From an uncultured bacterium (GTDB taxonomy: Bacteria > Planctomycetota > UBA1135 > UBA2386), in assembly GCA_937952215.1 (NCBI GenBank), contig CALFZH010000060.1, positions 194,464-258,463 on the forward strand: a stretch of 64,000 nt of DNA, read 5' to 3'. Below are positions 5,569 through 60,133 of this stretch, piece by piece. The notes under the pieces are model-generated. The model was not told the DNA's origin. It ran no database searches and saw only the letters and a program-made list of their open reading frames with translations. Numbering within the stretch: position 1 is the first letter of the stretch; each line of letters opens with the position of its first letter. The position numbers and the translations under genes were made by a program.

Positions 5569-6431
5569 AGCCCGACGAACCGTTGTGGGCGGCCGGCATC
5601 GACGTCGGCAGTTCCTCGATCAAGGTGGCGATCCTGCAGGACCGTGGACCGGCGGGAGCGACCTTGACCGCCCGGGTGGTCGAGCGGCTGCGCCGGCGCG
5701 ACCCGTTGCAGGTCGTCGAGGGGGCCCTGCAGCAGGCGCTGCAGGCCGCCGGCCTGCGCCGCGGGCAAATCGACTACGTCGCCACGACCGGCGAAGGCGA
5801 GAAGGTCGAGGACCGCACCGGCCATTTCTACGGCATGACCACGCATGCGCGCGGCGGCCTGTTCCTGGACCCGGCGGTACGGGCGGTCGTCGACATCGGC
5901 GCCCTGCATGCGCGCGCGGTGCTGATGGACGACCGCGCCAAGGTGCTCGGCCACCGCATGACCAGCCAGTGCGCGTCGGGTTCGGGGCAGTTCCTCGAGA
6001 ACATCTGCCGCTACCTCGGCGTCACCATCGACGAGATCGGGCCGCTGTCGCTGACCGCCGACAAGCCGGAGACGTGTTCGTCGATCTGCGCGGTGTTGGC
6101 CGAGACCGACGTCATCAACATGGTGTCGCGCGGCATCTCGATCCCGAACATCCTGAAGGGCATCCACCTGTCGATGGCTGGCCGCTACGTGAAGCTGCTG
6201 ACGTCCGCCGGGGCTCGTGGGCCGGTGCTGGTCACCGGCGGTCTGTCGCGTGACCGCGGCCTGCTGCGGGCGATGACCGAGTCGGCGGCCGAACAGAAGG
6301 TCGCGATCGAAGTGCGGAGCCACGACGACTCGGTGCTGGCCGGCGCGATCGGCGCCGCGTTGTGGGGCGCGTTCCGCGCGCGCAAGCTCGCGGCGAAGGG
6401 CGTGCCGCTCACCACCGGAGTCGCCCGATGA
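5565..6431 (+). CDS. bcrD: benzoyl-CoA reductase subunit D (BcrD/BadG, ATPase)
   Basis: A GTG at 5565 overlaps the bcrA stop (GTGA). The sequence WAAGIDVGSSSIKVAILQD...SQCASGSGQFLENICRYLG is the second BcrAD_BadFG ATPase. The product is 288 aa. Confidence 0.85.
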   Translation: MKPDEPLWAAGIDVGSSSIKVAILQDRGPAGATLTARVVERLRRRDPLQVVEGALQQALQAAGLRRGQIDYVATTGEGEKVEDRTGHFYGMTTHARGGLFLDPAVRAVVDIGALHARAVLMDDRAKVLGHRMTSQCASGSGQFLENICRYLGVTIDEIGPLSLTADKPETCSSICAVLAETDVINMVSRGISIPNILKGIHLSMAGRYVKLLTSAGARGPVLVTGGLSRDRGLLRAMTESAAEQKVAIEVRSHDDSVLAGAIGAALWGAFRARKLAAKGVPLTTGVAR

Positions 6432-37617: not shown

Positions 37618-40161
37618 TCACAGCCGCAGCGTGTTGACGTCGCCGGGCCGCAGGCTCAGCGTCTCGCGCCCGACGTCGGCCCCGGCCTTGCGCAGCACCA
37701 GCACGGCCGCGGTGTCCGGAACGACGAACACCGGCGAACGCCCCTCGGCGAGCCGCAGTTCCGCCGACTCGCTGCGGCTGCGACCCTGGAACACGTTGAG
37801 GATCAGTGGCTGGCCGTCGCCGTCGAGCACGGCGATCGCATCGGCGCGCGCGGGATCCAGCAACTCGACTTGCACGTGCATGCGCACGCGGACTTCGAGA
37901 CGGAACTCGTGCGGTCGTCCGCCCGACAGGTCGAGCAATCCGCCGTTGTGGTCGCGACCCGGCTCGCTCGGAATGACGCGATCGCCCTCGAGCCGGAAGT
38001 AGGCCCAGGCCTTCGGCACCTTCGGCAACGTGAAGGCGCCGCGTTCGTCGGTCGTCGCGACTGCGGCGGCGCGTTCGTGTTGCGTGCGACCGGCCAGGCT
38101 CTGCGTGTCGATCTGCACCTGCACGCGCACACCCGGGACCGGCGTGCCGTCGCGGGCGACGACGACGCCCTTCACCTCGGCGAACAGGTGGCTCTGGTCG
38201 AGCACCAGCCGCACCCCGCGCGCCCCGGCGGGGACCGCATCGTGCTGGCACATCAGCAAGGTCTCGTGGTCGATGGCGCGCAGGCAGTAGGGGCGGTCCT
38301 CGAGGCCGTCCAGCGTGAACGTGCCGTCGGCGCCGGTGCGCACCCACGGCTGGCCGGCGGTGGGGGTCGTCCGCAGCACTTGCTGAGGGTTCTGCCCGGC
38401 GAACTCGCCGCGCTCGAAGCGGGCGCGAAGGTCGTTCATCGTCGGCAGGCCGCGGGCGATGCCCTCGACCAGCACCTGTTCGCGCGAATCGCACAGCAGC
38501 GTGGCGTCGTTGGGCCACACCACGATGCCCGGCAGGCCCTTGCCGTCCTGGTCGACGACGCGGCCATGGATCGCCAGCGGCGCCCCGCCGAGTTGCAGCA
38601 CGACGTGGCTTGCGAAGCCGCCGGCGCGGGCCAGGAATGCGCGCCGATGCCCCGCGGCGATGGCGGCGAGGCCTTCGCCGCGGCCGTCGTCGACGATCAC
38701 GAAGTTGCCCGCCTCGTCGCTGCGCGCGAGGGCGTTGCCGAGCCCGACCTGCGCACCGGCGACGATGCGCCCGTGGGCATCGACGACCTGACCTTGCACG
38801 GTGCCGGGCTTGCCCGAGATCGGTTCGAGCACGACCACGATCCCGGCTTCGTCGCGCATCGGAGCCGGCCGCCGCGCCGGCAGGTGGCCGGGCGCCGTCA
38901 CCAGCAGCTCGGCGCCGCGCACGGCGCCGGTGGTGAAGGCGAAGGCGCCGTCGGTGCTGCATGCGGTGGACACGTTGCGTTCACTCGCGGCGTCGCTGAC
39001 GTCGCGCAGGCGACTGCGCAGGTCGGCGGGCCAGACGACTTGCACGCTGGCGCCGGGCACGCGCGCCGCCGCGACGTCGCGCACGGATCCGGCGACGCGA
39101 ACGCTCGGCGCGACGACGACGAGCAGGGGCGGCGGGTTGTCGCCGGCGGGCACCAGACTCTCGAGGATCGTGAACAGGCCCGGATGGTCGGCAGTCGCGA
39201 CGAGCGGCTCGGCCATGGGCACCGCCACCACGAACGCGCCGACCGCGTCGCTCTTGCCGGCGACTTTGCCGACGCGCACGTCGATGCCAGCGGCGCCCGC
39301 CCCTTCGCTGTCGACCACACGACCAGCCACGGTGCGCGCTGACGGCGCCGGCGACGGCGGTGCCGTTGCCGGCTCGGCGGCAGGCGCAGCCACCCGTTCG
39401 CCCGGATCGTCGGAGTTGCCGAGTGCTGCGGCCGGGCGTTCCTCGGTGCCGCGCACGAGCGGTGGCGTCGGGGACGGTGTGTCCGGCGCGGCGTTCGGTG
39501 CCTGCAGACCGATCCACAGGGCGGCGAAGCCGACGACGACGATGGCCGCGGCGGCGGCGAGAGACTTGATGTTCATGGCGAGGATGGCGAGGGAAGGGGC
39601 GACTGCCGTGCTGCGCAGCACGGCGGGCAGCGGCAGCAGGGCCTGCCGCCAATCACGAGCTTCGGCGTCGGTGTCGAGGCGGCGCCGCAGTCGCTCGTGC
39701 GCGCGCAACAGGCGCGAGTGCACGGTCGCGACAGCGATCTGCAGGCGCAACGCGATGGCGCGCGGCGGCTCGTTCTCGAAGTAGCGCAGCAGCACGACGT
39801 CGCGGAATGCCGGTGGCAGCGCGAGCACGGCGTCGACGACGGCGCGATGGACGTTGGCGCGGACCAGCAGGTCCGTCGCCGTGGATGCGGCGGGGAGGGC
39901 GGTCATCACCGTGCGTTCGCGGGCCATGCGGCGGACGTCGCCGCGGCGCTGTTGGCGGACCAGGTTGTGCAGCACGGTGCGCATCCAGCCCCGCAGGTTG
40001 CTGGCATGCACCGGAGGCCGGCGCAACGCCTCGACGCACGCATCTTGGGCGAGGTCGTCGGCCGCATGGGCGTCACGCACCAACCCGCGCGCCAGGTCGC
40101 GCACCCAATGCGCTTCGCCGAGCAGTGCCTCCAGAGCGGGTGTCGGTGATGACGCGGACAT
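37618..40161 (-). CDS. ECF sigma-70 domain fused in one ORF to a transmembrane helix and a large extracytoplasmic region of CarboxypepD_reg-like repeats
   Basis: 847 aa. The N-terminal ~180 aa has sigma region 2 (DDLAQDACVEAL) and region 4 (FRDVVLLRYFENEPPRAIALRLQIAVATVHSRLLRAHERLRRRL). A transmembrane segment (IKSLAAAAAIVVVGFAALWIG) follows, then at least five repeats such as VAGRVVDSEGAGAAGIDVRV and VKGVVVARDGTPVPGVRVQV. Confidence 0.7.
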   Translation of the reverse strand: MSASSPTPALEALLGEAHWVRDLARGLVRDAHAADDLAQDACVEALRRPPVHASNLRGWMRTVLHNLVRQQRRGDVRRMARERTVMTALPAASTATDLLVRANVHRAVVDAVLALPPAFRDVVLLRYFENEPPRAIALRLQIAVATVHSRLLRAHERLRRRLDTDAEARDWRQALLPLPAVLRSTAVAPSLAILAMNIKSLAAAAAIVVVGFAALWIGLQAPNAAPDTPSPTPPLVRGTEERPAAALGNSDDPGERVAAPAAEPATAPPSPAPSARTVAGRVVDSEGAGAAGIDVRVGKVAGKSDAVGAFVVAVPMAEPLVATADHPGLFTILESLVPAGDNPPPLLVVVAPSVRVAGSVRDVAAARVPGASVQVVWPADLRSRLRDVSDAASERNVSTACSTDGAFAFTTGAVRGAELLVTAPGHLPARRPAPMRDEAGIVVVLEPISGKPGTVQGQVVDAHGRIVAGAQVGLGNALARSDEAGNFVIVDDGRGEGLAAIAAGHRRAFLARAGGFASHVVLQLGGAPLAIHGRVVDQDGKGLPGIVVWPNDATLLCDSREQVLVEGIARGLPTMNDLRARFERGEFAGQNPQQVLRTTPTAGQPWVRTGADGTFTLDGLEDRPYCLRAIDHETLLMCQHDAVPAGARGVRLVLDQSHLFAEVKGVVVARDGTPVPGVRVQVQIDTQSLAGRTQHERAAAVATTDERGAFTLPKVPKAWAYFRLEGDRVIPSEPGRDHNGGLLDLSGGRPHEFRLEVRVRMHVQVELLDPARADAIAVLDGDGQPLILNVFQGRSRSESAELRLAEGRSPVFVVPDTAAVLVLRKAGADVGRETLSLRPGDVNTLRL

Positions 40162-40310
40162 GGAACGAGCAGTGCCGCCAATGCGCGATCCTCGCCCGGA
40201 GATTCGCCTGGAGTCACATCAGGCGTGAATCCACCCCTGCGCCACCGACCGCAGCCCGACTGGCACGTATCATCCGCGCCTTCACCCCGACCCGACCCAC
40301 AGGAGTACCG

Positions 40311-41444
40311 ATGAGACGGACTGTTCTCGCCGCCGTGCTACTGCTGGCTCCGCCCGCATTCGTCGCCGCCCAAGCCGGCGAGACGAAGCCGGCGCCGAGC
40401 CAGCAGGACCCGCAGGCGGCCTACGACGAGCTGGTCACCGCCCTGAACAAGGCGATGAGCGATTGGCAGACCGAGGCGCAAGCCGCGATCGAGAAGGCGC
40501 AGAAGGCCGGCGAGGCCTTCCCGGCGATCGCGATGCAGCCGCCGACGAAGGAGTTCATCAGCCGCGCGCAGGAGCTCGCCGGCGCCTTCGAAGGCAAGGA
40601 CGACGCGGTGCGCTTCCTCGCGTTCATCGTCAAGAACGCGAGCAACGAGCGCAACGCCGTCCGGAAGGCCGTCGAGACGCTCGCGGCGAAACACGCTGGC
40701 AGCAAGGCGATCGCCGACGTGCTGCCGTTCCTGCCGATGGCGACGCGCTTTGGCGCCAGCAAGTCGGTGATGGCCCTGCTCGATCAGGTCGCTGCCGACC
40801 ACGCCGACGCCGACTGCAAGGCGCTCGCCATGATCACGCGCGGCACGCTGCGGCTGCAGCAGGCGCAGACCGACGAGCAGCGCAAGGCTGCCGAGAAGGA
40901 CCTGCGCGACGTGGCCGCGGTGACCAAGAACGCGGAGCTGCTCGCCCAAGCGAAGGACGCGCTGTTCGAGATCGAGAACCTGCAGGTCGGCTGCACGGCG
41001 CCCGACATCGTCGGCGTCGACGTCGAGGGCGTTCCCTTCAAGCTCAGCGACTACCGCGGCAAGGTGGTCCTGCTCGACTTCTGGGGATTCTGGTGAGGCC
41101 CCTGCCGGGACATGATCCCGCACGAGCGGTCGCTCGTGGAGAAGTGGAAGGACAAGCCGTTCGCGTTGCTCGGCGTCAACAGTGATGGCACCGACACCGA
41201 GGAAGGTCTGAAGAAGTACCGCGAGGAAGCGAAGACCATGGGCGTGACCTGGCGCAGCTTCCGCGACGAGGGCAGCACGCCGAAGATCAGCGACACTTGG
41301 CGCGTGCAGGGCTGGCCGACCCTCTACTTCCTCGATCACGAAGGCGTGATCCGCCACAAGGACGTGCGCGACGACGCGGAGATGGAGAAGGTCCTCGCCG
41401 AGATGATCGAAGCCGCGGAAGCGGCGGCGAAGGCGAAGAAGTGA
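40311..41444 (+). CDS. secreted TlpA/ResA-like thiol:disulfide oxidoreductase, predicted selenoprotein (U-G-P-C), Sec codon at 41094..41096
   Basis: The ATG at 40311 is preceded by AGGAG, and there is a signal peptide LLLAPPAFVAAQA. ORFs 39807..41096 and 41112..41444 are in the same frame. Read-through gives VVLLDFWGFW-U-GPCRDMIPHERSLVEKWKDKPFALLGVNSDG, the Trx-fold WCxPC site. Confidence 0.75.
41121..41138 (+). promoter_or_regulatory. candidate bacterial SECIS hairpin (7-bp stem, GGUC loop)
   Basis: CACGAGC-GGUC-GCUCGUG. The loop starts 31 nt after the UGA. The GGUC apical loop is the same as in the E. coli fdhF SECIS. Confidence 0.6.
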
Positions 41445-41453
41445 GTGCGGGCC

Positions 41454-41481
41454 GCGCGCGTCCCCGTCGTGGGGCGCGCGC
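41454..41481. terminator. GC-rich hairpin between convergent genes
   Basis: GCGCGCG-T-CCCC / loop GTCGT / GGGG-CGCGCGC, about 11 bp. It sits between the stop at 41444 (+) and the stop at 41493 (-). No T-tract is present. Confidence 0.35.
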
Positions 41482-41492
41482 CGGCGGCACCC

Positions 41493-41828
41493 TCAGTACG
41501 GACTGTCGAGCATGTCCCAGATGATCTGCTCGACGTCCGGCTGGCACTTGCCGGTCAGGCGCTGCACCGGCTCGCCCTTGCCCTCGATGTGCGCCGCGAT
41601 CGCCGGCAGGTCGCCTGCGGTGACCTTGCTGTAGAAGATCTTGTCCGGGTAGAGCGTGACGTTGATGCCCTGATCGCAGGCGCCGAAGCACGGGTAGCGC
41701 CGGATCTTGATGCGCTCCTCGTTCGGATCGAACTGCTTGATCAGGTCGCGCAGCTTGTCGAACACGTCGCCACTGCCTTTCTCGGTGCAGTCGCCGCCTT
41801 CGCAGACGTAGCAGAGTCGGTTGGTCAT
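41493..41828 (-). CDS. thioredoxin-like [2Fe-2S] ferredoxin
   Basis: Internal ATG at 41828 of ORF 41493..42107, 111 aa. The Cys ligand pattern is CYVCEGGDC...YPCFGAC. It lies downstream of boxB. Confidence 0.65.
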   Translation of the reverse strand: MTNRLCYVCEGGDCTEKGSGDVFDKLRDLIKQFDPNEERIKIRRYPCFGACDQGINVTLYPDKIFYSKVTAGDLPAIAAHIEGKGEPVQRLTGKCQPDVEQIIWDMLDSPY

Positions 41829-41959
41829 ATCGGCTCGAATGTCGGTTGCTTCGATCGGCCGCGCGAGGCGCGGTGCCGGCCGGGAGGGCGCCTTCGTGGC
41901 CGCGCGCACTGCCGGCCACCGAGGAGACGCCCGAGCCGGCGCGCGCGGTGCGCGGCGGC

Positions 41960-43378
<1,419 letters not shown>

Positions 43379-43380
43379 GG

Positions 43381-45003
43381 TCAGGTCCTCCTCCAGTCGA
43401 ACTTGGCGCTCTCGGGCGCGCCGTAACGTGTGAGTGCGCCTTCGTCGCCGGTGGCGTTCGGGCGCGTGAAGATCCAGTTCTGCCAGGCCGAGAGACGGCC
43501 GAAGATCTTGCTGTCGCAGTTCTCGGCGCCGCCGAACCGCAGCGACGCCTCCATGCCGGTCAGCGCGTCGGGCGACAACGACGAACGCTCCTCGATCGCG
43601 ATGCGCGTGTCGTCGCTCCAGTCGACCGGGTCGAGCAGGTAGGTGCAGAGTCCCTGCTCGTCGGCTTCGGCGGCGCCGAGCTTCGGCGCCTCCGCGGCCA
43701 GCCGCGCGCCCTGGTCGGGCTGCGCGAGGAAGCGGTTCTGCAGCCGCGTCAGCCCGTGGCTCATCGGCAGCGCCCCGGCACTCAGCGGACCGAAGGCGAA
43801 CGCGACCCGGTCGTCGTCGAGTGCGTAGACGCGATCGCAGGCGAGCGTCAACTCGAGGAACGCGCCGGCGGCGCAGGCTTGCTCGTCGACCATCGCGTAG
43901 GTCGAGCGCGCCATCAGGTCGAAGCGGCGCAGCGTGCGCGCCATCTGCAGCAGGATCTCGTTGCAGAGCCAGTGCGTGCGGTTCGCGAACAGGTCCTTCT
44001 CGACCGCGAGCAGCGCGTCGCGGTCGCCGCGCGTCCGCAGCACGACGAGGCCGACCTGCTCGTGATCGAAGCGCAGCTGCAGCAGCGCGTCGTCGAGTTC
44101 GCGCCAGCAGCGCAGCGCCCAGGCGGCACTGCCCGCACGTTCGTAGTCGGCGCCGGTCTTCGGCTGCGGGCCGCTCGGGCCGTGCACGGTCAACGTCGCG
44201 ACGCGCGTGGCGGCGGACACCTCGAGCTGCACGTGGGTCCAGGAGTACTTGTCGCCGTCCTGCTTCGCCTGGATGCGCTCCAGTTCGATGCCCTTGCTCG
44301 CCTTGGTCGGTTGCCGGCTCGCGAGTTCCTTCGCCCGCGCCGCCACCTTCTCGGTGAACTGCGACTTCGGCCAGATCGCGTCGACGAAGCCCCAGGCGAG
44401 CGCCTTCTTGCCGCGCAGGCCCTCGGCCATCGTGCAGAACACGTCGGCGCGGTCGCGGCGGATCTTGCGCTTGTCGACCAGCCGCGTGAGGCCGCCGGTG
44501 CCCGGCAGCACGCCGAGCAGCGGCACCTCCGGCAGCGACACCGCCGAGTTGTTGTCGTTGACGAGGTGGATCTCGTCGCACGCGAGCGCCAGTTCGTAGC
44601 CGCCGCCGGCGCACGCCGCGTTGATCGCGCAGAGCGCCGTGAGCCCGCTGTGCCGGCTCGCGTCTTCGAGCGACAGCCGCGTCTCGTTCGTGAACTTGCA
44701 GAAGTTCACTTTGAACGGGTGCGTGCTCTCCGCCAGCATCCAGATGTTCGCGCCGGCACAGAACGCGCGCTCCTGCGCGCTGCCGACGACGACCACCTTC
44801 ACCTGCGGGTGCTCGAAACGCAGCCGCTGGACAGCGTCGGCCAACTCCATGTCGACGCCGAGGTCGTAGCTGTTGAGCTTCAACTCGTAGCCCGGCTGGA
44901 AGGGGTGCGCCGGGTCGACGTTCATGCGCAGGTGCGCGGTGTCGCCGTCGATCTGCAGTTGCCAGTGCTTGTAGCTGCTCGGGTGGCGGTGGAAGTCAGT
45001 CAT
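43381..45003 (-). CDS. boxC: 2,3-epoxybenzoyl-CoA dihydrolase (benzoyl-CoA-dihydrodiol lyase, double crotonase)
   Basis: Internal ATG at 45003 of ORF 43381..45111, 540 aa. YKHWQLQIDGDTAHLRMNVDP...ERAFCAGANIWML...CAGGGYELALACDEI. It sits 2 nt upstream of boxB. Confidence 0.85.
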   Translation of the reverse strand: MTDFHRHPSSYKHWQLQIDGDTAHLRMNVDPAHPFQPGYELKLNSYDLGVDMELADAVQRLRFEHPQVKVVVVGSAQERAFCAGANIWMLAESTHPFKVNFCKFTNETRLSLEDASRHSGLTALCAINAACAGGGYELALACDEIHLVNDNNSAVSLPEVPLLGVLPGTGGLTRLVDKRKIRRDRADVFCTMAEGLRGKKALAWGFVDAIWPKSQFTEKVAARAKELASRQPTKASKGIELERIQAKQDGDKYSWTHVQLEVSAATRVATLTVHGPSGPQPKTGADYERAGSAAWALRCWRELDDALLQLRFDHEQVGLVVLRTRGDRDALLAVEKDLFANRTHWLCNEILLQMARTLRRFDLMARSTYAMVDEQACAAGAFLELTLACDRVYALDDDRVAFAFGPLSAGALPMSHGLTRLQNRFLAQPDQGARLAAEAPKLGAAEADEQGLCTYLLDPVDWSDDTRIAIEERSSLSPDALTGMEASLRFGGAENCDSKIFGRLSAWQNWIFTRPNATGDEGALTRYGAPESAKFDWRRT

Positions 45004-45245
45004 GCCGCGTCGTGGTGGGGTTCGGGGGCGAGGAGTCTGGGGATCGTCGCGCGGGGTTGCAAGCACGATAGAGCACTGTTCCGAGCCTGGAATATGCAGT
45101 TTATGGCACATCGCGAAGCCATGGCGCGCGGCGGGTCGGCGCGACCTGCATTGCGGCGAAGGCCACGCCGAGTCGCGCAGTGCTCGGCGCTCGCCGCGGG
45201 GCGTGCTTGTTCTGCCGTTCGCCCGTCGTTACAGCACAAGAGACG

Positions 45246-59554: not shown

Positions 59555-60133
59555 ATGCCGTTCATCCGTCAGGTCGAGGACCACGAAGCCGGCAGCGAAG
59601 CGCGGCGCGAACTCGACGCGGCGCGCCAGCGCGCGGGCCGCGTCTGGAACATCGTGCGCATCATGACGCCCAATCCGGCGGTGCTGCGCGCGTCGATGGC
59701 GCTCTACCGCGCGGTGATGTTCGGGCCCTCGCCGCTGTCGCGTCGGCAGCGCGAACTGCTCGCGGTCGTCACCAGCCGGGCCAACGGCTGCGTCTATTGA
59801 CTGCGGGCCCACGCGAACGACCTCCGTGCCGAGGTCGTCGACCTGGTCGATGACGGCGCGCGCGACGCGTGGGTCGACGCGGTGGCGCGCGACTGGCGGA
59901 CCGCGGCGCTGAGCCCCGTCGAGCGCGCGTTGTGCGCGTTCGCGGACAAGCTCGCGCGCGCGCCGGCGGCGAACGGCGTCGCCGACGTCGACGCGCTGCG
60001 CGCGGCGGATCTCGACGACGTCGCGATCCACGACGCGACGCAGGTGGTCGCCTACTTCGCCTACATCAACCGCATCGCCAACGGCCTGGGCGTCGAGCTC
60101 GAGACGTTCGTGCGGGCCTGGGGCGCGGTTTGA
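59555..60133 (+). CDS. AhpD/carboxymuconolactone-decarboxylase-family peroxidase-related protein, predicted selenoprotein (C-V-Y-U), Sec codon at 59798..59800
   Basis: ORFs 59555..59800 and 59882..60133 are in the same frame. Read-through gives ...RELLAVVTSRANGCVY-U-LRAHANDL..., the AhpD-family N-x-C-x-Y-C-x3-H motif with the second Cys encoded by TGA. The combined length of 192 aa is typical for this family. Confidence 0.75.
59817..59838 (+). promoter_or_regulatory. candidate bacterial SECIS hairpin (8-bp stem, CGUGCC loop)
   Basis: ACGACCUC-CGUGCC-GAGGUCGU. The loop starts 24 nt after the UGA and contains GU. Confidence 0.55.

Follow-up and report, generated by a model that had tools for sequence, protein, structure and literature searches.

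A Candidate Exported Two-domain Selenoprotein of Planctomycetota with a UGA Codon in a TlpA/ResA-type Active Site

Results

Identification of a Gene Continuous across an In-frame UGA

A 64,000-nucleotide stretch of DNA from an uncultured planctomycete (assembly GCA_937952215.1, contig CALFZH010000060.1, positions 194,464 to 258,463 of the forward strand; hereafter the window, to which coordinates refer unless a locus is named) contains at 40311..41444 (+) a complete candidate selenoprotein gene, encoding 377 residues, with selenocysteine (Sec or U) as residue 262, followed by a stop codon. We read this region as one gene for an exported, two-domain selenoprotein in which UGA 41094 is recoded, and place the probability of this reading at roughly 0.9. 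It is supported by conservation of the UGA, conservation of the frame, homologues with Cys at the same position, a hairpin of the selenocysteine insertion sequence (SECIS) type with frozen synonymous sites, and the assignment of the fold.

The mechanically defined open reading frame (ORF) at 39807..41096 terminates in ...GKVVLLDFWGFW-TGA, with the TGA at 41094-41096 (+), beyond which the frame runs on unbroken (GPCRDMIPHERSLVEKWKDKPFALLGVNSDG...) to the true stop codon, a TGA at 41442..41444 (+); orthologues end at the equivalent place. The end of the ORF, the position of the TGA, and the in-frame continuation had all been described in an original prediction made from the sequence alone, and each was confirmed on the sequence. 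The true start is ATG 40311, which is preceded by a Shine-Dalgarno-like AGGAG at 40301..40305 (+), 5 nt upstream as read from the sequence. The limits of the gene are drawn from its translation, from the GC content at third codon positions (GC3), and from a frame conserved at 83 homologous sites. GC3 of the frame is 0.93 on the 5' side of the TGA and 0.91 on the 3' side, compared with 0.61 and 0.42 for the other two frames, and base composition by codon position thus points to one coding frame on both sides of the TGA.

Conservation of the UGA and of the Frame across It

To the window were added 80 loci fetched from species-representative genomes, where at least 457 confirmed relatives were found among the first 600 pattern matches listed. 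The window and these loci provide 83 distinct sites at which TGA is the codon following ...DFWxxW; TAA or TAG never occupies this position. Downstream of the TGA, all 83 sites continue in frame with [GPS]PC...HERSLV...GVNSD...WRSF...GWPT and then at least 104 open codons, so that thioredoxin-fold sequence is conserved 3' of the TGA in every case. The residues at positions +1 to +4 from the TGA, which are Gly, Pro, Cys, and Arg, are retained with 4, 3, 2, and 4 synonymous codons in use, respectively. Pro +2 is present at 83/83 sites (CCC 40, CCT 34, CCG 9), as is Cys +3 (TGC 79, TGT 4). Fixed residues with synonymously variable codons indicate that the bases separating the TGA from the next ATG are translated, a pattern not expected of a downstream ORF with a start of its own; judged from these sequence comparisons, a stretch that two-gene annotation reads as intergenic is under protein-level selection.

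This bears directly on the public annotation, in which the region is divided into a 261-residue secreted helical protein ending at TGA 41094 and a separately translated, 110-residue thioredoxin-like fragment starting at ATG 41112. Gene callers yield exactly these two products, the C-terminal fragments begin with MIPHERSLV and are in some cases named 'TlpA family protein disulfide reductase', and Met is found at codon +6 in 79 of the 83 sequences. Such an arrangement, however, leaves the invariant Pro (three codons) and Cys (two codons) ahead of ATG 41112 without a protein to which they would belong, and it divides a Pfam domain that is continuous across the TGA (see below). On its own, the fragment would be missing the initial strands of the fold and would have neither the nucleophilic residue nor a signal peptide, and inspection of the sequence ahead of ATG 41112 revealed no Shine-Dalgarno motif comparable with that of ATG 40311. 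Furthermore, the Met at +6 is an internal residue in Cys homologues (CRAMYP, CREMIP). Two separate genes are consequently considered very improbable.

The same division is found throughout the protein databases. With the read-through product as the query, 1012 homologues were retrieved, of which the best 120 (50-100% identity, 207-304 amino acids, mostly from metagenome-assembled genomes of Planctomycetota) all end in DFWGFW. A profile search of 1.84 billion cluster representatives gave at least 410 clusters (50% identity) at E ≤ 1e-30, and in 144 of the top 150 representatives the last residues are FWxxW (FWGDW 119, FWGFW 17, FWGHW 4, FWGNW 3, and FWGYW 1). The original prediction had named orthologues terminating at FWGFW, with an independently expressed downstream fragment, as the observation that would speak against it. 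The first part of that observation was indeed made, in 120/120 annotated homologues, but the DNA carries one continuous, conserved frame, and the database proteins are cut at this point because gene callers stop at the TGA.

An ordinary TlpA-like gene in which TGC or TGT had been misread as TGA, or had decayed to it in a pseudogene, would require a single base change, and many of the related sequences come from metagenome-assembled genomes. The TGA is nevertheless found at 83 sites in many independent assemblies, with the downstream frame intact, and the N-terminal homology detected by tblastn, which covers most of residues 1-261, extends down to ∼30% identity. The common end point of 144 of 150 cluster representatives argues in the same direction. 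A sequencing or assembly error, or a pseudogene, is therefore refuted by the conservation and retains next to no probability.

Cys Homologues and the Active Site

The predicted active site, W-U-G-P-C, comprises residues 261-265 within ...LLDFWGFW-U-GPC, and the redox motif U-G-P-C is encoded at 41094..41105 (+), with its Pro and Cys invariant at all 83 sites and their codons synonymously variable. The U position aligns with the first, nucleophilic Cys of WCxPC in solved ResA and TlpA-type structures, and five homologues with 50-57% identity (P0224, P0225, P0229, P0230, and P0239) have W-C-[GP]-P-C with Cys at this position. A further Cys form (L071:3853) has WCPTC and lies in tandem with Sec forms. 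The prediction that a TGA stands in place of the N-terminal nucleophilic Cys of a TlpA/ResA/AhpC-TSA motif was thus borne out, and the check that it proposed, for Cys at the U position of aligned homologues, agrees with it.

Pro336-Thr337 of the G-W-P-T motif (41316..41321, +), which is kept in the downstream frame of the homologues, occupies the position expected for the cis-proline of the thioredoxin fold and aligns with the Pro-Thr of ResA (PDB code 4nmu); from this alignment Pro336 would adopt the cis conformation.

A difference between Sec and Cys forms was observed at codon -6 (41076-41078) of ...L-D-F-W-G-x-W-U, which encodes Asp in 83/83 Sec forms. The equivalent residue is Lys, Ala, Ser, Ser, or Val in five of the six Cys forms (the same five homologues as above) and Asp in L071:3853. 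Bias of the search pattern may account for part of this contrast, which could also reflect tuning of the selenol environment.

Tandem gene copies are present at four loci (L047, L054, L065, and L071), and two database proteins comprise two modules in tandem. P0337 (538 amino acids) pairs a complete Cys module (FWGFWCPIC) with a second one truncated at FWGFW (Sec), and in P0387 (660 amino acids) the active site of the first module is degenerate (FWASWVGSY) and the second is a Sec module that stops at FWGNW.

A SECIS-type Hairpin Downstream of the UGA

Downstream of the active-site codons, the sequence encoding H-E-R-S-L-V (41121..41138, +) can form the hairpin CACGAGC-GGUC-GCUCGUG, with a 7-bp stem and a GGUC loop situated 31 nt from the TGA. 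Its calculated energy is -10.5 kcal/mol, and 1 of 200 shuffled sequences was as stable. The published model of the bacterial SECIS (bSECIS; PMC13188914) calls for 3-9 nt in the apical loop and 4-16 bp in the upper stem, a G at loop position 1 or 2, with G or U usually next to it on the 3' side, a distance of 16-37 nt between UGA and loop, and a minimum free energy of -7.5 kcal/mol or lower. When checked against these published values, the hairpin (4-nt GGUC loop, 7 bp, 31 nt, and -10.5 kcal/mol) falls within all four. The stem and GGUC tetraloop at a SECIS-compatible distance, part of the original prediction, thus agree with the model, and their codons proved to be frozen.

The 18 nt of the hairpin are nearly invariant even among paralogues with only ∼30% identity in the N-terminal domain. 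Within it, Arg is encoded by CGG in 75/75 cases, Ser by TCG in 76/76, Leu by CTC in 79/81, and Val by GTG in 75/83, whereas the equally conserved upstream residues Leu(-17), Ser(-16), and Arg(-13) use five different codons each. As seen in these alignments, synonymous freezing within the hairpin would be strong support for an RNA element.

A minority of the sequences depart from this pattern. Those with HEK[AST]LV (L034, L050, L071, L076, and L079) are without the CACGAGCGGUCGCUCGUG hairpin, and most of them have a hairpin located ∼7 nt further downstream, for example GGCGCU-CGUGA-AGCGCC, whose arms differ between loci and yet remain complementary (GUCGCU/AGCGAC in L076 and AGACGCU/AGCGUUU in L050; folds read by eye). 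Two other members without CACGAGCGGUCGCUCGUG, L035 (labelled Armatimonadota) and L077, have no clear hairpin. Among the three Cys forms for which DNA was available, one has all of the hairpin codons but the last, and they are gone from the other two. Both the shifted hairpins and the losses in Cys forms fit a SECIS function.

Against recoding at UGA 41094 stand a number of observations, most of which concern the same hairpin. When 76 nt are folded together, the result does not surpass that for shuffled sequences (z = +0.5), and the case for the hairpin is consequently made by its conservation and not by folding energy. The helix shows almost no covariation, as it hardly varies: pairing is retained in 95.5% of cells over 79 distinct sequences, and only one pair has changed on both sides. 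The peptide HERSLV is also found in Cys homologues, and part of the conservation must therefore be at the level of the protein. In the SECIS of Escherichia coli fdhF, the determinants recognized by SelB are G23 and U24 of the loop and the bulged U17 (PMC8659212). The window hairpin has in common with it a location within the coding sequence just 3' of the UGA and a G-U in the loop, but its 7 bp are perfect, without a bulged U, and it lies ∼13 nt further from the UGA, as reckoned from the fdhF numbering. A scan of the whole window at the Rfam gathering thresholds gave no match, including none to a bacterial SECIS, the coverage of SECIS elements by Rfam being unchecked. The genes of the Sec machinery were likewise not encountered: tblastn with approximate E. 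coli queries revealed no selA, selB, or selD in the window and 84 loci (∼0.9 Mb of scattered DNA), and ARAGORN revealed no selC in the window and 52 loci. These two negative results are uninformative, since little of any one genome was covered. Finally, clustering of gene neighborhoods across the loci, with a crude ORF filter that admitted many antisense ORFs, showed no conserved redox partner such as CcdA/DsbD, the only synteny being at the level of the clade with ABC_transp_aux and DUF4340 genes.

Decoding of UGA and a Second Candidate Selenoprotein Gene

TGA is the stop codon of 27/27 confident high-GC3 ORFs checked in the window, the candidate selenoprotein gene included, with none ending in TAA or TAG. 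This excludes reassignment of the codon, and the organism must accordingly distinguish a Sec-UGA from very many stop-UGAs. The usage is more one-sided than expected even for a high-GC genome. Planctomycetes with complete Sec machinery have been described (PMC4807772).

The TGA could in principle be decoded as something other than Sec, either by near-cognate read-through inserting Trp or Cys or by a reassigned codon. Trp is indeed found at the equivalent position in some database homologues of a second UGA-containing gene of the window, described below, suggesting that some callers used a code in which TGA is Trp. Apart from the 27 TGA stops, such decoding would leave unexplained a dedicated hairpin with frozen synonymous sites at SECIS distance. 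The recoded position is moreover the catalytic Cys of CxxC, a classic site of Cys/Sec exchange, at which Trp or Gly would abolish redox activity. Decoding as an amino acid other than Sec is thus regarded as highly unlikely.

The second candidate selenoprotein gene (59558..60133, +) is AhpD/CMD-like and contains the motif N-G-C-V-Y-U-L-R-A-H (CxxU), with its TGA at 59798-59800. The Pfam CMD domain spans this TGA at 5.4e-13, and the homologues include full-length Cys forms, N-terminal fragments ending in ...NGCVY, and C-terminal fragments beginning just past the TGA. A hairpin, CGACCUC-CGUGCC-GAGGUCG, is found at 59818-59837 (+). At the orthologous loci L085:3418 and L086:2998, a TGA at the same codon is accompanied by a SECIS-like hairpin, that of L085 being CGACCUCC-GGUC-GGAGGUCG. 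L085 and L012, the latter a carrier of the TlpA-like gene, come from the same metagenome-assembled genome. Selenoproteins of the AhpD-like CxxU type constitute an established family (PMC1088965), and the presence of a second conserved, putative Sec gene in the window provides indirect support for Sec decoding in this organism.

Domain Architecture of the Predicted Product

The first 20 residues (40311..40370, +) resemble a signal peptide of the Sec secretory type (MRRTVLAAVLLLAPPAFVAA, then QA), with a basic n-region, a hydrophobic core, and V-A-A ahead of the predicted cleavage site, as judged by inspection. A similar pattern is present in homologues, and the pLDDT (the confidence measure of the AlphaFold2 model) is low in this region.

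The AlphaFold2 model of the N-terminal 261 residues, built with alignment A1 and having a mean pLDDT of 84, revealed helices over residues 34-223 with values mostly above 90, defining an all-α solenoid at approximately residues 34-223 (40410..40979, +). No Pfam or NCBIfam match was obtained for the N-terminal region, and comparison of its fold with the PDB gave no match at E ≤ 0.001. The nearest PDB folds are designed helical repeats, TPR, and 14-3-3-like proteins, with query-normalised TM-scores of 0.4 or lower. The unusual N-terminal helical domain noted in the original prediction is therefore upheld by the model and by these searches.

A TlpA/ResA-like thioredoxin fold, within which the Sec codon lies, was assigned to residues 226-377 (40986..41441, +) from Pfam and PDB matches. 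The match to Pfam AhpC-TSA, obtained with U read as Cys, covers residues 226-349 (4.1e-17, 62.7 bits, cut-off 26) and runs across residue 262. Redoxin (9.3e-14, 51.9 bits, cut-off 26.6) and Thioredoxin_8 (40.9 bits, cut-off 27) also score above their thresholds. The closest solved relatives are ResA (4nmu, 3.5e-17) and TlpA (1jfu, 5.1e-13).

Discussion

Proposed Mechanism

What follows on how Sec is inserted, on export, and on the course of electrons from donor to substrate is inferred from the sequence, the model, and the TlpA/ResA family. Translation would start at ATG 40311, and when the ribosome reaches UGA 41094-41096, the hairpin at 41121-41138 would recruit SelB with Sec-tRNA(Sec), so that Sec is placed at residue 262. 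The 377-residue product would carry a cleavable signal peptide, an α-solenoid of ∼190 residues, and a TlpA/ResA-type thioredoxin fold with W-U-G-P-C, and by comparison with the TlpA/ResA family it is expected to reside in the periplasm. By the same analogy, the Sec-Cys pair most likely acts as a selenenylsulfide/selenol-thiol couple, with the disulfides of client proteins, or oxidised Cys or Met repair enzymes, as the most likely targets of reduction. The clients are most likely chosen or bound by the helical domain. Electrons would presumably be supplied by a membrane protein of the CcdA/DsbD type.

Relationship to Known Selenoproteins and Thiol-disulfide Oxidoreductases

A TlpA-like oxidoreductase with Sec in place of Cys is an already known kind of protein, catalogued since 2004-2005. 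Thiol-disulfide isomerase-like (TlpA-like, cd02966) UxxC selenoproteins were predicted from the Sargasso Sea metagenome by Zhang, Fomenko and Gladyshev in 2005 (PMC1088965) and are also listed in Table 1 of PMC13188914. They share with the window protein the TlpA-like fold and Sec for the first Cys of CxxC, and were likewise predicted from an in-frame TGA, Cys homologues, and a bSECIS. The comparison was made with the published description of this group, whose reference sequence is MGB1650493.1; the papers mention neither an N-terminal helical domain, nor DFWGxWU[GP]PC, nor Planctomycetota. The same table, in a review from 2026, lists a Prx-like thiol:disulfide oxidoreductase (PF00578, UxxC/UxxU) as 'predicted with high confidence' and, among the predicted families (2004-2016), a 'Thiol:disulfide interchange protein' and a 'Redoxin family protein' (UxxC). 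PF00578 is the best Pfam match here too, and the UxxC motif is shared with the Prx-like selenoproteins, but NCBIfam and PDB searches place the window protein nearer to ResA/TlpA than to peroxiredoxins, and it has an additional domain of ∼190 residues.

TlpA from Bradyrhizobium (1jfu/4txo) and ResA from Bacillus (4nmu/1st9) have in common with the window protein the fold, the position of the active site (W-C-x-P-C versus W-U-G-P-C), the Pro-Thr at the cis-proline position, and an extracytoplasmic location, which is predicted for the latter. They differ in having Cys at the position of Sec and a simple membrane anchor in place of the signal peptide and solenoid. The NCBIfam scores are far below the cut-offs for the TlpA equivalog NF047696 (59.1 versus 230) and for ResA NF002854 (72.2 versus 170), and the window protein is accordingly a member of the superfamily only and not an orthologue of either. 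NF041054, the 'ResA-like WAxxUGC motif-containing protein' (WAxxUGC_long), is also a ResA-like selenoprotein with extra N-terminal sequence. Membership of this family was ruled out by score and motif: the window protein reaches 33.4 bits against a cut-off of 300, is matched over residues 227-306 only, and has UGPC where NF041054 has UGC.

What sets the present family apart is its additional domain, a SECIS that hardly varies, and its systematic mis-annotation. A search of the literature found no description of the Planctomycetota family, its N-terminal domain, or its invariant SECIS, and the paper describing BSepDB mentions neither Planctomycetota nor TlpA.

Extent and Significance of the Family

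The sequences collected here raise the possibility, to which we give somewhat less than even odds, of an undescribed superfamily of exported two-domain selenoproteins centered on Planctomycetota. Its members would combine a signal peptide, an α-solenoid, and a TlpA fold with DFWGxW-U-[GP]PC, would almost always be Sec forms, would occur as several paralogues per genome (some in tandem and some multi-module), and would share an 18-nt SECIS cassette. Were this to hold, these bacteria would possess a large selenium-dependent periplasmic redox network, in which different solenoids specify different clients, that is invisible to current annotation. In every public copy seen, the gene appears as two entries, a 'hypothetical protein' of ∼260 residues and a ∼110-residue 'TlpA family' fragment. 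Because a large family is divided in this way, its redox function and its selenium requirement are missing from metabolic and trace-element inferences for Planctomycetota.

As this kind of protein is already known, the conceptual gain is modest, and the finding is of value mainly for annotation and for the clean SECIS signature that it gives this phylum. With its GGUC loop and almost invariant sequence, the hairpin offers a simple, specific search pattern for Sec genes in the phylum and a natural test case for recognition by SelB. A Sec-containing periplasmic reductase of the TlpA type joined to a putative client-binding solenoid would also be a useful system in which to ask what selenium buys in extracytoplasmic thiol-disulfide exchange.

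Genomic Context

Among close orthologues, ABC_transp_aux and DUF4340 genes immediately precede the candidate selenoprotein gene. Downstream in the window (41493-45111, -) are genes for a thioredoxin-like 2Fe-2S ferredoxin, a PaaA/BoxB-like di-iron oxygenase, and an enoyl-CoA hydratase. This trio resembles a cluster of the aerobic benzoyl-CoA or phenylacetyl-CoA type and is also found beside distant paralogues in L031, L032, and L056. Between the convergent selenoprotein and ferredoxin-like genes, a GC-rich hairpin follows the stop codon (41451..41485, +; -37.4 kcal/mol for the folded 61-nt stretch, z = -1.8). It is a weakly supported candidate terminator that has no U tract, and a scan of promoters and terminators called nothing, this hairpin included.

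The single call made by ARAGORN, a 94-nt 'tRNA-Ala (GGC)' at 5690-5783 (-), is unsupported by the Rfam scan, which gave no tRNA match there, and is probably spurious.

The window differs from the close orthologous loci, which have nothing between the DUF4340 and TlpA-like genes, in that a gene at 37618-40161 (-) is located there. It encodes a fusion protein of 847 residues comprising regions 2 and 4 of an extracytoplasmic function (ECF) sigma factor and a long C-terminal region with CarboxypepD_reg. A similar fusion gene is found in L086 (3370-6075), directly after the AhpD-like selenoprotein gene, and the positions of these two genes may reflect a regulatory link to redox or selenoprotein genes, or may be a coincidence.

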